Source of the DNA: Gemmatimonadota bacterium
Lineage (GTDB): Bacteria; Latescibacterota; UBA2968; UBA8231
Assembly: GCA_038128265.1 (NCBI GenBank)
Contig: JAYPJE010000070.1
Location: forward strand, 1 to 18,754
Reading direction: 5' to 3'
Length of the DNA stretch: 18,754 nt
Position numbers and translations under genes: made by a program. Each line of letters begins with the position of its first letter. Position 1 is the first letter of the stretch. Below the pieces are notes generated by a model. That model ran no database searches and had not been told where the DNA came from. It saw nothing but the letters and a program-made list of their open reading frames with translations. Of this stretch, positions 54 to 12,746 are shown piece by piece.

Positions 54-503
54 TCAGATTACCTCGGCCTGACCGCCGGCCTTTTCAATTTTTTCGCGCG
101 CACTAGCAGAAAACTGGTGGGCTTTAACAGTTACGCTGCGGCTCAGCTCGCCTTCGCCCAAAATCTTTACTGGCTGACTGGCACTGCGGACCAAACCCGC
201 TGCGCGCAACTCCTCGATGCCAATCGCCCCTTCCAGACCGCGGGCCTCAATGTCACCCAAGTTCACCGTCTGGTACACCACTCTAAAATTGTGATTAGAG
301 AAGCCGATCTTAGGCATGTGGCGATAGTAGGCCAACGTGCCGCCAATAAAGCCAATGCGGTTGCCGCGACGGGCGCCGGAGCGCGCACGCTGTCCCTTAT
401 GCCCTTTGCCGGCTGTTTTGCCCGTACCCGAGCCAGGCCCCTGCCCCAAACGCTTGCGATTGCGGCGCGACCCCTTCGGGCACTTGATTTCCCCTAAACG
501 CAT
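54..503 (-). CDS. rplO: 50S ribosomal protein uL15
   Basis: Gly-rich RKRLGQGPGSGTGKTAGKGHKGQRARSG, VKILGEGEL and C-terminal FSASAREKIEKAGG; lies between rpmD and secY. Confidence 0.97.
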   Translation of the reverse strand: MRLGEIKCPKGSRRNRKRLGQGPGSGTGKTAGKGHKGQRARSGARRGNRIGFIGGTLAYYRHMPKIGFSNHNFRVVYQTVNLGDIEARGLEGAIGIEELRAAGLVRSASQPVKILGEGELSRSVTVKAHQFSASAREKIEKAGGQAEVI

Positions 504-521
504 AATCGGTTCGCCTTCTTC

Positions 522-704
522 TTAAGCATCCTGTTCGCGCACCTCAACCAGGTGCTTGACTTTTTCAATCATGCCGCGAATCTGCGGCGTGTCTTCGTGA
601 ACGACCTGCTGGTAGAGGCGCTTCAGGCCCAATGCCTCAATGGTGGCTTTCTGATTCTTCGCCCGGCCAATAGCACTGCGATGCTGTTTGATAACTAACT
701 TCAT
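522..704 (-). CDS. rpmD: 50S ribosomal protein uL30
   Basis: 60 aa, [19 protein letters not shown]...[16 protein letters not shown]; canonical position. Confidence 0.97.
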
Positions 705-718
705 CGAATCATACTCTC

Positions 719-1225
719 CTAACCGCGCAAAACTTCCATTGGAACGCCGCGTAGACGCGCAGTCGACTCGGCATCGCGCAGCTGACCTAGCGCTTCCAGC
801 GTAGCTTTGACGGCGTTGTGCGGGTTGGTCGAACCCAATGATTTGGTAAGAATGTCGTGCACACCGGCCAACTCCAACACAATGCGTATACCGCCGCTGG
901 CGATAACGCCCGTTCCCGGAGAAGCCGGCTTGAACAAAATGTGCGCCGCGCCAAAACGGCCTGCAATTTCGTGGGGAATAGTTCCATTCACCACGGGCAC
1001 TTCAATCATGTTTTTCTTTGCCGCTTCGGTCCCCTTGCGAATCGCTTCGGAGATCTCACCCGCTTTACCCGAGCCGGCACCGACGCGCCCGTTGCGATCA
1101 CCCACCACAACCATGGCATTGAAGCTGAAGCGACGACCACCCTTGCGCACGTGCGAAACGCGCTTGATGCTATTCTGAACGACGACTTCGCTCAGCTCCA
1201 TGCTATTGGGATCTACTTTCGCCAC
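719..1225 (-). CDS. rpsE: 30S ribosomal protein uS5
   Basis: [38 protein letters not shown] motifs; GTG start with GAGGAG SD. Confidence 0.97.
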
Positions 1226-1240
1226 AGAAGTAATTCTCCT

Positions 1241-1615
1241 CTAAAAATTCAGCCCGCCCTCGCGAGCGCCGTCGGCTACAGCTTTTATAATACCGTGATA
1301 CAGATAGCCTCCGCGATCGAAGACTACTTTTTCGATTCCCTTTTCCTTCGCCTTTTCAGCTACGATCTTGCCCACTTCTGCGCCCTGCTCAACGCGGCTT
1401 GCAAACGAGCGTTCGCGCAACTCTTTGCTCTGCGTGGAAAGGCCAAAAAGCGAATGACCTGCGCTATCGTCGACCAACTGCACTTCGATATGCCTGAGCG
1501 AGCGGTGAACGACCAAGCGCGGCCTATCGGAAGTACCCGAGACGATTTTGCGCAACCGATGGCGCCGCCGCTGTATGCGAGCCCGGTTTTTGTTAAGGTG
1601 TTTCTTATCCTTCAT
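1241..1615 (-). CDS. rplR: 50S ribosomal protein uL18
   Basis: GTSDRPRLVVHRS, VVFDRGGYLYHG, AREGGLNF motifs. Confidence 0.97.
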   Translation of the reverse strand: MKDKKHLNKNRARIQRRRHRLRKIVSGTSDRPRLVVHRSLRHIEVQLVDDSAGHSLFGLSTQSKELRERSFASRVEQGAEVGKIVAEKAKEKGIEKVVFDRGGYLYHGIIKAVADGAREGGLNF

Positions 1616-1617
1616 AA

Positions 1618-2175
1618 TTAGCCCGCTGCGGTTTTACCTTGTTTCCAGTGGATAACTTCGTTCTCATAGCGAATCCCCTTGCCCTTATAAGGCTCGGGCT
1701 TACGCTTAAAGCGGATATCGGCAGCTACCTGCCCAACGACCTGCTTATCAACACCGCTCACCGTGATGCGAGCCTGGGCGCCTCCCTCCCCGTTGCCGAC
1801 GGCAATGTCGATGCCGGCCGGGGCTTCGTAGACCACCGGATGCGAATATCCTACGTGCAATGTCAGCTTGCTCCCCTGCGCTTCAGCGCGCCAACCGACG
1901 CCAAACAAATCGAGGTTCTTGCTGAAGCCCTCGCTCACGCCGGTTATGGCATTGGCGATGAGCGAACGGGTCAAACCGTGCAGCGACTGAGCCACCTTCG
2001 AGTCGCTCTTGCGCACGACCTGAACGGCATCGCCATCCTGTTCGACGCCAATGTGATCGCCGACAAACGGCACGTCTAGAGCGCCCTTAGGCCCCTTTAC
2101 GGCAACGTGGACCCCGTCGACCTTAACGTCGACCCCTCCGGGTACTGTGATCGGTGCTTTTCCTATGCGCGACAA
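1618..2175 (-). CDS. rplF: 50S ribosomal protein uL6
   Basis: MSRIGKAPI start (TTG, GAGGAG SD), VKGPKG, GYSHPV, RKPEPYKGKGIRY motifs. Confidence 0.97.
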   Translation of the reverse strand: MSRIGKAPITVPGGVDVKVDGVHVAVKGPKGALDVPFVGDHIGVEQDGDAVQVVRKSDSKVAQSLHGLTRSLIANAITGVSEGFSKNLDLFGVGWRAEAQGSKLTLHVGYSHPVVYEAPAGIDIAVGNGEGGAQARITVSGVDKQVVGQVAADIRFKRKPEPYKGKGIRYENEVIHWKQGKTAAG

Positions 2176-2193
2176 CGTCTTTTTCTCCTCAAT

Positions 2194-2592
2194 CTACCAA
2201 ACGCTACAGAGTATCTCGCCGCCGACGCCGGCCCGACGAGCTTCTCTATCGGTCATTACGCCTTTCGACGTGGACACAATGGCAATGCCGAGGCCCCGGC
2301 GAACGCGCGGCACATCTGCATTGGCCGAATACTGGCGCAGGCCCGGACGACTAATGCGCTTAATTCCCTGAATCAGCCCTCTGTTGTTGCTATCATAGCG
2401 CAAGTAGAGTCGCAGTATGCCCTGCTTGTTGTCTTCTATCACCGCAAAGTTATCGATGAAACGCGTCTCCGCTAACACGCGGGCGATCTCGCGCTTTAGA
2501 TTGGACGAAGGGATATCTACGCGGGGGTGCTTGGCGCGGCTGGCGTTGCGAACGCGGGTCAACATATCCGCGATGGGATCGGTCATACTCAT
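2194..2592 (-). CDS. rpsH: 30S ribosomal protein uS8
   Basis: [51 protein letters not shown]. Start moved from 2640 (ORF track) to the ATG at 2592, which follows an AGGAGG SD and avoids overlap with rpsN. Confidence 0.97.
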
Positions 2593-2605
2593 TTGCAGTA
2601 TCCTC

Positions 2606-2791
2606 CTACCAGCTGGCCTTAGTGACGCCGGGAATCTCACCCCTGAGGGCTAACTCGCGGAAACAGATACGGCAGAGACCGAACTTCCGGTAATAGCCGC
2701 GCGGACGACCACAGCGCTGACAGCGATTGTATTTACGCGAGCTGAACTTGGGCGTGCGGCGCGCTTTGGCTATTAGAGACTTTTTAGGCAT
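2606..2791 (-). CDS. rpsN: 30S ribosomal protein uS14, short zinc-binding (type Z, C+) form
   Basis: 61 aa with CQRC and CRIC zinc-ribbon pairs and C-terminal [11 protein letters not shown]. Confidence 0.97.
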
Positions 2792-2810
2792 TCACTAATT
2801 CTCCCAAACA

Positions 2811-3356
2811 TTAATTGCTGAAAGGCATGCCGAGCGACTTCAGCAACTCGTGCCCTTCTTCATCGGTTTGAGCCGATGTAACGATTGTTATGTTCATCCC
2901 GCGGACCTGATCAATTCTATCGTAATCGATTTCGGGAAAGATGATCTGCTCTTTAATACCAAGATTGTAATTGCCCCGCCCGTCAAACCCACGGACGGGA
3001 ACCCCGCGAAAGTCGCGCACCTGCGGCAACGCCAGCGTGATCAGTCGGTCGAGGAACTCATACATATGGCTGCCCCTCAGCGTCACCATACAGCCAATGG
3101 GGATACCTTCGCGCAGCTTAAAGTTAGAAATGGCCTTTTTAGCGCGGCGCAGCGCCGGCTTCTGGCCCGTTATCGCCGTCAATTCGCTCACGGCGCTTTC
3201 CAGCGCTTTGGGTTCACCCACCGCCTCGCCAACGCCCATATTGACAACGACCTTATCAACGGTCGGAATCTGCATGACGTTTCCGTAGGAGAAACGCTCT
3301 TTCAACTGCGACTTAACCTCATCGCGGTACATCGTTTTAAGTCTGGGCTCGCTCAT
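2811..3356 (-). CDS. rplE: 50S ribosomal protein uL5
   Basis: [49 protein letters not shown] motifs. Start set at the ATG at 3356 (MSEPRLK), past the rplX stop. Confidence 0.97.
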
Positions 3357-3369
3357 GACCACCCTTTTC

Positions 3370-3687
3370 TTACTGCGAGTCAATCATCTCGCCGCTGCGG
3401 GCAGAGACGCGTACGTTTTTACCACCGTCGAGTGTCTTGTGACGAACGCGCGTCGGCAAATCCGTCTTCGGGCAAATCACCATCACATTGGAGAGGTGTA
3501 TGGGCGCCTCTCGCTCTATGATGCCACCCTGAGGATCGCGCGACGAGGGGCGCGAGTGATGCTTGCGCATATTTACGCCCTCGACGAGCACTCGATTTTT
3601 GTCTTTCATAACGGCCAATACGGTCGAGCGGCGGCCTTTGTCGTTGCCGCTCATCACCTGCACCGTATCCCCTTTTCTAATATCCAT
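3370..3687 (-). CDS. rplX: 50S ribosomal protein uL24
   Basis: KOW motif [38 protein letters not shown]. Confidence 0.97.
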
Positions 3688-3713
3688 GTGAATCCTCTAT
3701 TGACGTTGTCGGC

Positions 3714-4082
3714 CTAGACGACTTCGGGAGCCAACGAGACAATGCGCATATACTGCTTGTCGCGCAGCTCTCTAGCTACGGGGCCGAAAATGCGCGTCCC
3801 CCTGGGCTCTTTTTCGTCGTTGATCAACACCGCTGCGTTTTCATCAAAGCGTATGTACGATCCGTCGGGACGGCGATATTCCTTCTTGGTGCGCACGACT
3901 ACGGCCTTAGCCACCTGGCCCTCTTGCAGCGGCCCATTGGGCAGCACATTGTGCACGGCAACCACAATAACATCGCCAACGGAAGCGTAGCGCTTGCGCG
4001 TTCCGCCAAGTACGCGAATGCACTTTGCCGTGCGCGCGCCCGCGTTGTCTGCCATTTTTACTATCGTGTATTCGTGTATCAT
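3714..4082 (-). CDS. rplN: 50S ribosomal protein uL14
   Basis: [48 protein letters not shown] motifs. Confidence 0.98.
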
Positions 4083-4352
4083 TTAGACTTGATCCGCGTT
4101 TCGCTCCATGATCTCGATCAGGCGCCAGCGCTTGGTGCGGCTCATGGGACGACACTCTTCGATGCGAACTAAATCACCGACGTTGGATTCGTTTTTTTCG
4201 TCGTGCGCGACGAACTTGGCCGTGCGGCGAATAACGCGCCCATAAAGCGGGTGCGCAATGCGCTGCTCGACGGCGATCACACGCGTCTTGAGATTCTTCG
4301 CCTTCAGCACTCGACCTTCAGCCGTACGGCGCTCTGTTGTATTGTTGGACAT
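4083..4352 (-). CDS. rpsQ: 30S ribosomal protein uS17
   Basis: HPLYG, AHDEKN, GDLVRIEECRPMSRTKRW; its stop directly abuts the rplN start (TAA-ATG). Confidence 0.96.
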   Translation of the reverse strand: MSNNTTERRTAEGRVLKAKNLKTRVIAVEQRIAHPLYGRVIRRTAKFVAHDEKNESNVGDLVRIEECRPMSRTKRWRLIEIMERNADQV

Positions 4353-4355
4353 TGC

Positions 4356-4574
4356 TTAAGCCTCTCCCCCAGGCAGGCTATCCTGCTGTAAATCGCGCTC
4401 GCGCATCAGGGTGCGTACGCGCGCAATATCGCGCCTGACCTGACGCAGGCGAATGGGACTAGTCAGCTGGCCGGAGACGTGCTGGAAGCGCAGATTAAAC
4501 GCCTCTTCCTCGAGCTCTTCCAGCCTGTTTTTTACATCATCCGCGTTCATTTCGCGCAGTTCACTGGCCTTCAT
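4356..4574 (-). CDS. rpmC: 50S ribosomal protein uL29
   Basis: MKASELREM, FNLRFQ, GQL, RRDIARVRT motifs. Confidence 0.96.
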   Translation of the reverse strand: MKASELREMNADDVKNRLEELEEEAFNLRFQHVSGQLTSPIRLRQVRRDIARVRTLMRERDLQQDSLPGGEA

Positions 4575-4576
4575 AA

Positions 4577-4987
4577 CTATGCCACCCGCTCTACGAATTT
4601 GGTTTTGATCGGCAGCTTATGGCCGGCTTTGCGAAATGCCTCGCGGGCCAGCTCAATCGGCACACCCGAAAGTTCGAACATAACGCGACCCGGCTTGACG
4701 ACGGCTACCCACCCTTCAGGGGAACCCTTGCCTTTTCCCATGCGCGTTTCCGCCGGCTTCTTGGTAATGGGTTTGTCGGGAAAAACGCGAATCCACATTT
4801 TTCCGGTGCGGCTCATGGTCCTGCTGATGGTAACGCGGACAGCCTCAATTTGGCGGCTCGTTATCCAACCCGGCTCCAACGCCTTCAAGCCGTACTCGCC
4901 AAAGGAAACCATGTCTCCTCCCTTGGTCTGGCCGCGCATGCGGCCGCGAGACTGCTTTCTCCACTTTGCTTTCTTGGGCATTAACAT
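4577..4987 (-). CDS. rplP: 50S ribosomal protein uL16
   Basis: [44 protein letters not shown] motifs. Confidence 0.98.
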
Positions 4988-5017
4988 GGGTTAAATCTCT
5001 TTTCGCTCTCTCTATAC

Positions 5018-5665
<648 letters not shown>

Positions 5666-5676
5666 AAAGAACTCCC

Positions 5677-6024
5677 TCAGTTGACCTGGTCGCTGACGAC
5701 CACGGTAAGATGACAGTGACGTTTGCGAATGCGATCAGCCGATCCGCGCGCGCGGGGGCGAATGCGCTTCAGATCTCGGCCTTCGTCGGCATAAATCGCC
5801 TTGACGTAGAGGTCCTCTGCATCCACTGGATTTTCTTCGTCCTGATTGATTCCGTTGGCAATAGCCGAGCGCAGCGTCTTTTCTACTTCCCGCGCAACGG
5901 GGCGCGGCGAAAAACGCAAAATTGTCAGCGCTTCTTCAACCGGCTTGCCACGCACCAAATCGATTAATTGGCGCATCTTTGTCGCGGGAATGCCGACCTG
6001 CTTTAGTATCGCTCTAGCTTCCAT
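5677..6024 (-). CDS. rplV: 50S ribosomal protein uL22
   Basis: [45 protein letters not shown] motifs; lies between rpsS and rpsC. Confidence 0.96.
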
Positions 6025-6043
6025 AGTTTTCTAAATCCACCCT

Positions 6044-6331
6044 TTAGCGCACGCGGCTACCGCGCTCCGTGAGCTTACCGCCGTGCCCGCGAAACGTGCG
6101 GGTCGGAGCGAACTCGCCGAGCTTATGGCCGACCATATTCTCAGTTATATAGACTGGAATGAACTTGTTGCCATTGTGAACGGCCAGCGTGTGGCCGACA
6201 AAATCCGGAGTGATCGTAGAGCGACGCGACCACGTCTTGACCACGCGCTTGCCGCCCGTGCGATTGAGCTCTTCCACCTTTTTCTCCAGATGGCCATCGA
6301 TAAATGGGCCCTTCTTGACTGACCTAGGCAT
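6044..6331 (-). CDS. rpsS: 30S ribosomal protein uS19
   Basis: [38 protein letters not shown] motifs. Confidence 0.98.
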
Positions 6332-6348
6332 CTATCCGTTCACTCCTT

Positions 6349-7185
6349 CTACTTCGAATTGCGCCGACGCAATATCATGGCGTCAGAGCGGTTCTTGTGC
6401 TTGCGCGTCTTATAGCCCTTGGTGGGCTTGCCCCACGGCGTCACGGGATGGCGTCCACCGGATGTCTTGCCTTCACCACCACCGTGCGGGTGATCGACCG
6501 GATTCATCACGACGCCGCGCACCTTCGGACGGCGCCCCAACCAACGTGCGCGACCGGCCTTGCCGAGGACGACGTTGCCGTGCTCTACGTTGCCCACCTG
6601 TCCGAGCGTTGCCATGCATTGCACAGCCACCTCGCGAATTTCACCCGAGGGTAAGCGAAGCTGCGCTCGCCCATTTTCGCCGCGACCCAAAAGCTGCACC
6701 TCAGCCCCTGCACTGCGCGCCAACTGACCACCGGCACCGGGCTGTAACTCGACGTTGTGAACGGTCGAACCAAGGGGAACGTTCAGCAGCGGCATGGCGT
6801 TGCCGACGCTAATCGGCGCATCGGGCCCAGCCACCACGGAAGCTCCCACGACGAGCCCTGCAGGCGCCAGGATGTAGCGCTTGTCGCCATCGGCATAGAC
6901 GACCAAGGCGATAAAGGCAGAGCGGTTGGGATCGTACTCGACGGAAGCGACCTTGCCCGGCACGCCAATTTTATTGCGCTTAAAGTCAATGACTCGATAG
7001 CGGCGCTTGTGACCACCGCCGCGGCGGCGCATGGTCATTCTGCCCTGATTGTTGCGTCCACCCGACTTGCTTACAGCACCGCGCAGCAGCGACTTCTGTG
7101 GGCTACCGGCGCTAACCTCTTCAAACGAGTTGACCGTTTTATAGCGCAGAGTAGGCGTTACGGGACGAAACTTCTTGACTGGCAT
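6349..7185 (-). CDS. rplB: 50S ribosomal protein uL2
   Basis: [56 protein letters not shown] motifs. Confidence 0.99.
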
Positions 7186-7198
7186 AATTTAGTCCAAC

Positions 7199-7486
7199 CT
7201 ATACGTTTTCAACGAATTCAATGGAGTCGCCGGCTTTCAGCGTGACATACGCTTTCTTCCAACCTGCACGACGCCCGGCGTAGAGGCCCTGCCTCTTGGG
7301 CTTGCTGGGCACCTTGACGGTGCGCACCGATTCGACGCTCACGTCAAAGATGCTTTCTACCGCCTGCCGGATCTGCACTTTATTCGCCTTAGGATGCACG
7401 CGGAAAGCATACTTATTGCCCTCGCGCAAGATAGTGGCTTTCTCAGTGATGACCGGTTTCAATATGATGGAGCGAGGGTTGCTCAC
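7199..7486 (-). CDS. rplW: 50S ribosomal protein uL23
   Basis: PVITEKA, YAFRVHPKANKVQIRQAVE.IFDV.V, WKKAYVTL; GTG start with GGAGAGG SD. Confidence 0.97.
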   Translation of the reverse strand: MSNPRSIILKPVITEKATILREGNKYAFRVHPKANKVQIRQAVESIFDVSVESVRTVKVPSKPKRQGLYAGRRAGWKKAYVTLKAGDSIEFVENV

Positions 7487-7497
7487 AGAATCCTCTC

Positions 7498-8139
7498 CTA
7501 AGCATCAACTGCAGCGTGGTGCTCTACGAGCTTGTCCAACGCCTGTCGAGTAAAAAGTATCACATCAGCCGAAACGACGTCGTACGTGCCCAGAGAACCA
7601 ATGTGCGTTGCGTTGACTCGCCGGATGTTTCGGCTGGACTTGACCAGCACAGTTGCATTTTCGGGCGTTACAAAGAGCACCTTTTGCCCATCGAGACCGC
7701 AGGCATCAATAACCCCTTTGAACGACTTGGTGCTGGGCTGATCAAAGTCAAAATCATCGACTATCTTGACCTGTCCCTCTGTCCCTTTCAGCGTCAACGC
7801 CGAACGGAACGCCAAGCGCTTGAGCGCCTTGGGCAGTTTCGAATAGTAGGAACGAGGTTCCGGGCCGAACGCCACGCCTCCACCGCGCACGAGCGGCGAT
7901 CGATTGGATCCGCGGCGCGCACCACCCGTACCCTTTTGGCGATGGTGCTTCTTGCTCGTCCGAGAAATCTCCGAACGCGTCTTCACTTTGGCAGTACCCT
8001 GACGCTGATTTGCTTCGTAGGTGACGACCGCGCGATAGAGGGCGTATTCGGAAACCTCGGCGGCAAACAACTCGTCGGGCAATTCCACCGAGCCGTTGGG
8101 CTTACCTTCCGTCGTGAGAACTTCTACCTGTGCACCCAT
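7498..8139 (-). CDS. rplD: 50S ribosomal protein uL4
   Basis: RQGTAKVKTRSE, RQKGTGGARRGS.RSPL.RGGGVAFGP.PR, SSRNI motifs. The likely start is the ATG at 8139. An in-frame ATG at 8145, overlapping the rpsJ stop (TGATG), is an alternative. Confidence 0.96.
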   Translation of the reverse strand: MGAQVEVLTTEGKPNGSVELPDELFAAEVSEYALYRAVVTYEANQRQGTAKVKTRSEISRTSKKHHRQKGTGGARRGSNRSPLVRGGGVAFGPEPRSYYSKLPKALKRLAFRSALTLKGTEGQVKIVDDFDFDQPSTKSFKGVIDACGLDGQKVLFVTPENATVLVKSSRNIRRVNATHIGSLGTYDVVSADVILFTRQALDKLVEHHAAVDA

Positions 8140-8144
8140 GCCCA

Positions 8145-8453
8145 TCAAACCTTAATGTCTATGCCAATGCCTGCGGGCAAGTCCAACTTCATCAGCGCGT
8201 CCACGGTCTGCGGCGTCGAATCGTAGATATCGATTAGGCGCTTGTGAACGCGCGTTTCGAACTGCTCGCGCGATTTTTTGTCCACGTGCGGCGAACGCAG
8301 CACGGTGTAGATACTGCGCGAAGTCGGCAGCGGCACGGGACCCGCAATGCGGGCCCCGCTGCGCTTAACCGTCTGTACTATCTCGTCCACAGACCTATCC
8401 AATGCCACGTGATCATAGGCCTTCAGGCGAATTCGGATTCTATCAACAGCCAC
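8145..8453 (-). CDS. rpsJ: 30S ribosomal protein uS10 (NusE)
   Basis: [47 protein letters not shown] motifs; GTG start with GGGAG SD. Confidence 0.98.
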
Positions 8454-8475
8454 TTGGCGTGTCTCCCAGAGTTAG

Positions 8476-12717: not shown

Positions 12718-12746
12718 AAGTTAAATCTCTGCTATATAACTGTCAA
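12718..12746 (-). promoter_or_regulatory. Sigma70/SigA-type promoter for rpsL and downstream genes
   Basis: The minus strand reads TTGACA (12746-12741), a 17-nt spacer, then TAACTT (12723-12718). It sits in the AT-rich 75-bp rpoC-rpsL spacer, about 40 nt upstream of the rpsL start. Confidence 0.8.

Follow-up and report, generated by a model that had tools for sequence, protein, structure and literature searches.

In family f1, a group of uncultured marine and sediment bacteria, the ribosomal protein gene rplC (uL3) is absent from its usual place between rpsJ and rplD in the S10 operon and is found at another site in the genome. This relocation is a natural, inherited trait of the family and is confined to f1 within our class and phylum sample. 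The account that best explains the observations as a whole, and which we consider likely, is that the native rplC became a stand-alone, monocistronic gene upstream of the operon, in the same orientation and a few tens of kb away.

The stretch of DNA analyzed here (the window, 18,754 nucleotides) contains the rpsJ-rplD junction of one f1 genome. The minus strand at 8160-8131 reads ...ATT AAG GTT TGA TGGGC ATG GGT GCA CAG, with the rpsJ stop codon at 8147-8145 and an rplD ATG at 8139. Both genes lie on the minus strand and are well supported: rpsJ (uS10; 8145..8453, 102 aa) by its open reading frame and a match to NF001861 at 159 bits against a cut-off of 85, and rplD (uL4; 7498..8139, 213 aa) by a match to TIGR03953 at 213 bits against a cut-off of 130. 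The minus-strand spacer at 8140..8144, the normal position of rplC, is 5 nt long and holds no rplC remnant. A sequence-only reading of this DNA had described the direct 5-nt join of rpsJ to rplD, which our analysis confirmed with one refinement, a second in-frame rplD ATG at 8143..8145 (minus strand) that overlaps the rpsJ stop as TGATG. The spacing is thus either 5 nt or a 1-nt overlap, depending on which ATG is used. An SD-like AAGGT within the end of rpsJ (8149..8153, minus strand), 9 nt 5' of the ATG at 8139, may serve the downstream start.

Translational coupling of rpsJ and rplD through the TGATG overlap is possible in this genome. Because the overlap occurs at only 5 of 24 printed f1 junctions, every one of them in genus g1, it does not define the family, and coupling at the junction was rejected as a conserved trait. 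At the other f1 junctions the first plausible rplD start falls ~1-52 nt past the rpsJ stop, and no trace of rplC was seen at any of the 24. We also considered a microhomology scar, since rplC and rplD both begin M-G-A in the source genome, but rplD starts differ across f1 and the likeness was treated as chance.

The source genome (G000) is a 102-contig assembly that is 84% complete. A Pfam L3 search of the whole genome, the kind of profile search that the sequence-only reading had proposed, returned a single match on contig C3 and none in the window, bearing out the earlier claim that the window lacks uL3. The match is an intact rplC of 205 aa on the minus strand (G000:C3:29728-30345, outside the window), which scores 263 bits against TIGR03625 (cut-off 142.9) over residues 4-202, as expected of a full-length bacterial uL3. 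Its third-position GC content (GC3) of 0.68 is inside the 0.63-0.70 range of nine ribosomal protein genes of the operon. The gene is flanked by a divergent heptosyltransferase-like (GT9) gene and a convergent HIT-family gene, both named at family level only because they score below curated cut-offs, with rlpA and pyrD located past the GT9 gene. Contig C3 begins in tRNA-like sequence (G000:C3:1-60), presumably a tRNA-Gly; this start, together with the continuous gene order in a second f1 genome (G003), suggests that C3 adjoins the tRNA cluster 5' of nusG-rplK.

To define how far this layout extends, we scored a class sample of 125 genomes that were at least 80% complete. In 118 of them the S10 and L4 matches shared a contig, and the other 7 were unscorable; rpsJ and rplD were called joined when fewer than 200 nt separated the two matches. 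The S10-L4 gap was 56-109 nt in all 66 scorable f1 genomes and 685-777 nt in all 52 genomes of f2-f4, the other three families of the class, so that rpsJ abuts rplD in 66/66 of the former and 0/52 of the latter; this is the gene-order comparison with relatives that had been suggested from the sequence. In other classes of the phylum, 22 of 24 genomes had an L3 match, and rplC adjoins rplD in 22/22. The layout is therefore a clean, rare genomic marker for f1 (66/66 versus 0/74 outside). Exactly one L3 match was present in each of 58 f1 relatives that were at least 88% complete, and in our first f1 sample a match was found in 23 of 24 genomes, the exception being one that is 86% complete. The 59 f1-type loci come from records titled mostly Candidatus Latescibacterota or Gemmatimonadota bacterium. 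One practical consequence is that pipelines drawing ribosomal protein marker sets from a single scaffold will miss uL3 in f1.

Mis-assembly or sequence editing and true loss of uL3 had both been raised as explanations for the missing gene, and a fragmented, 84%-complete assembly with rplC on a different contig is the kind of genome in which a binning or assembly artefact might arise. Both are refuted, the first by the same join in 66/66 relatives, many with the region in one contig, and by RNA-library contigs that bridge the junction, and the second by the intact rplC on C3 and the single copy in 58/58 relatives; we regard either as having next to no chance of being correct. The bridging contigs, 746 and 591 nt long, come from metatranscriptomes of two other studies and cross the junction ungapped with 23 and 16 differences, respectively. 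They show that the join exists outside this assembly and say nothing on whether the genes share a single transcript. In two DNA sequencing runs, no piece among the matches listed bridged the junction by 31 letters per side, a result that carries no weight either way.

Several individual records deserve comment. One f1-type rplC locus (L119, 87% identity) sits in a record titled Planctomycetota, and a protein that is 75% identical (P0083) bears a Verrucomicrobia name; both records are likely mislabelled or misbinned. The sole rplC of G003 (G003:C66, L026) stops after codon 183 while the match runs on to residue 204, probably an assembly error, and rpsJ is split over two frames in G018:C36:14231-14516 (L152), probably through an assembly indel. 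In a Collinsella record (L221) the first gene of the operon is rplC and the preceding 1.5 kb has no annotated rpsJ, which is a different break at the same spot.

The new site of rplC is shared across the family. The GT9 gene lies upstream of rplC in 22/24 f1 loci (one locus lacks it and in one the contig ends), and the HIT gene lies downstream in 22/24. A single contig carries both rplC and rpsJ in 38 genomes. In 37 of these the two genes share a strand and rplC lies upstream; in the remaining one they are on opposite strands. They are 28-46 kb apart in the 17 genomes that do not belong to genus g14 and 40-130 kb apart in 19 genomes of g14, where the interval has expanded relative to the rest of f1; in one of the 38 genomes the distance is 1.35 Mb.

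The relocated gene appears to carry its own expression signals. The motif TTGCnn-17-TAnnnT occurs no more than 200 nt upstream of rplC in 23 of 24 f1 loci, compared to 0.9 expected from shuffled sequences, and the sole miss is a locus with just 68 nt of contig upstream. Because the pattern was chosen after viewing these first 24 sequences, it was then tested on held-out loci, where it was found in 38/38 further f1 loci (kin of the first set) compared to 6/77 upstream regions of rplC in canonical context. A hairpin followed by a U-run comes after the rplC stop in 17 of 23 loci versus 1.8 expected (G003 was excluded for its early stop). A generic scanner run on the G000 rplC locus detected neither a promoter nor a terminator. 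Together, the conserved elements support rplC as a monocistronic unit with a predicted sigma70-type promoter and intrinsic terminator of its own. Transcription would start from the TTGCnn-17-TAnnnT promoter, produce a leader of about 40-75 nt in most genomes with rplC preceded by its own SD, and end at a terminator that the convergent HIT gene probably uses as well, after which uL3 would join 50S assembly in the usual way. At one locus (L110), the rplC leader is filled by about six tandem units of 16-20 nt, which displace the promoter far upstream.

Since uL3 is a 50S assembly initiator, the move could instead be adaptive, with selection favoring an rplC outside the operon because uL3 could then be dosed or regulated separately from the other ribosomal proteins. 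The layout is fixed in 66/66 f1 genomes and the promoter and terminator are conserved, as such an account would predict, but family-wide fixation is explained by essentiality of the gene alone. The same promoter pattern has 242 matches across G000, 111 of them ahead of an SD-bearing open reading frame, which makes it look like an ordinary housekeeping promoter of this genome rather than a dedicated control element. No conservation of the rplC leader across genera was visible when 43 upstream regions were judged by eye, and an Rfam search of the leader in 7 loci gave no match. The gene for uL24, the other 50S assembly initiator, stays in the operon in the window. We consider selection for separate dosage unlikely. 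The broader version, that rplC escapes the S10 operon repeatedly since uL3 nucleates 50S assembly and that a separate promoter sets assembly starts apart from bulk ribosomal protein synthesis, seems to us similarly doubtful. If true, repeated adaptive escape would amount to a control point in ribosome biogenesis that has not been described before, and escape in unrelated lineages would offer a natural test of what keeps the S10 gene order so conserved.

An alternative origin is xenologous replacement, in which the uL3 gene at the new site would be of foreign origin and the operon would afterwards have lost its native copy. Several observations initially pointed this way. The f1 uL3 is 49-52% identical to class relatives that share 57-64% among themselves, two quick trees separate it from the f2-f4 clade, and its best PDB match, 9qt5_C, scores 220 bits, well above the next at 196 bits. 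The loop near the peptidyl transferase center differs from the class consensus, with an f1 signature of HGTPDRVRH and IGQGT in place of HGQSDRHRAP and IGQSS within residues about 125-165. However, uL4, which is still in the operon, shows the same pattern (43-46% to class relatives versus 53-63% among them), and in a 40-taxon control tree of uL4, uS10 and uL23, f1 likewise lies outside f2-f4 on a long stem. An AU test did not reject f1, f2, f3 and f4 as one uL3 clade (p 0.547).

Wider sampling gave a similar picture. We searched 1.84 billion cluster representatives with a profile and added to the tree those of the best 150 that had sufficient length, 142 in all; none of these had more than 52% mean identity to f1, none joined f1, and the closest rows were mostly members of the phylum. 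In this enlarged tree, f1 uL3 falls among sequences of its own phylum with FastTree supports of 70 and 92, although uL3 is a 205-aa marker whose deep nodes are poorly resolved and no Myxococcota sequence was knowingly among the rows. Among the 10 nearest representatives one organism name was obtained, that of an actinomycete. Searches of plasmid and PDB sequences found no close donor, with identities of at most 52.5% in the plasmid set. A 79-row quick tree that had grouped f1 with non-phylum rows (support 85) was set aside, as those rows had been picked by f1-derived peptide patterns. Accelerated evolution of uL3 was also rejected: within-family identity is 68% compared to 60% for uL4, and the stem is 0.35 compared to 0.55. 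The signal of foreign origin was dropped because the control tree, the AU test and the wider sampling removed it, and the sequence comparisons favor a native gene, leaving xenologous replacement improbable. The sequence-only reading had listed relocation, possibly under separate regulation or with replacement by a xenolog; the relocation held, separate regulation gained support from the conserved promoter motif and terminator, and the xenolog was not supported by the phylogenetic tests.

For a native gene, rplC would have left the S10 operon in the common ancestor of f1. The proximity and shared orientation of the new site led us to propose an ancient SNAP-type event, in which a local segment is duplicated and the copies are lost reciprocally, or an equivalent move over a short range; the operon copy would have been cleanly deleted once the other copy had a promoter. 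G030, a canonical relative, has the pyrD block known from the flank of the new site 28 kb upstream of its rpsJ and in the same orientation; it is the only 1 of 5 canonical relatives with pyrD near rpsJ. No empty target site was found in canonical relatives, where HIT is located elsewhere in 5/5, and the GT9 gene did not turn up in the retrieved stretches surrounding their pyrD. None of the genomes searched has two L3 copies, as an intermediate would, and no other S10 gene lies beside the moved rplC in 24 f1 loci; the absence of such a copy or remnant would be expected of an old event and speaks neither for nor against duplication.

Departures of single genes from the ribosomal cluster are a described class. 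Across 204 genomes, Brandis 2021 (PMC8046335) records 163 events, 48 of which are deletions of a single gene. The study cites the relocated rplJL of H. influenzae as one example and explains such moves by a proposed SNAP model of segmental duplication with asymmetric loss. As far as the text of that study describes it, f1 fits this 'deletion' class: one gene is missing, its neighbors are joined in order and the essential gene is present elsewhere. The f1 case and the published ones thus share an essential ribosomal protein gene gone from an otherwise intact operon and a copy elsewhere, with no long-distance transfer (PMC8046335). Relative to the cases presented there, f1 differs in that rplC alone moved, from inside the S10 operon, and that the move is fixed across a whole family. 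The study covers mainly Gammaproteobacteria and Bacilli, and its main text contains 0 occurrences of 'rplC' (PMC8046335). Our literature search, with most subscription papers outside its scope, found no description of a stand-alone rplC or of the f1 operon. The layout also shows that uL3 and uL4 need be neither co-transcribed nor translationally coupled.

Apart from rplC, the S10-spc cluster in the window is conventional. The remaining 18 genes from rplW to rplO (54..7486, minus strand), including rplX (uL24), were identified by Pfam in canonical order. The earlier claim of canonical order from rpsJ to secY held up, with S10 and L4 passing NCBIfam cut-offs and secY, of which the window edge holds just the start, recognized by eye only. 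Compared to the canonical S10 operon, 10 of 11 genes are present in canonical order and are followed by the spc genes, whereas rplC is absent here and there is no leader 5' of rpsJ, which begins 22 nt from tuf and so leaves no room for an E. coli-type L4 attenuator. The 22-nt tuf-rpsJ spacer (8454..8475, minus strand) is also too short for a promoter, so the S10 genes are probably co-transcribed from the str operon by read-through. A promoter-like site 5' of rpsL, TTGACA-17-TAACTT (12718..12746, minus strand), is the likely start of the transcript running from rpsL through rpsJ to rplD; the pattern is loose and has 2 minus-strand matches, the other within fusA. The uS14 encoded in the window (2606-2791, minus strand) is a short form of 61 aa with two cysteine pairs, which we take to be the zinc-binding type.
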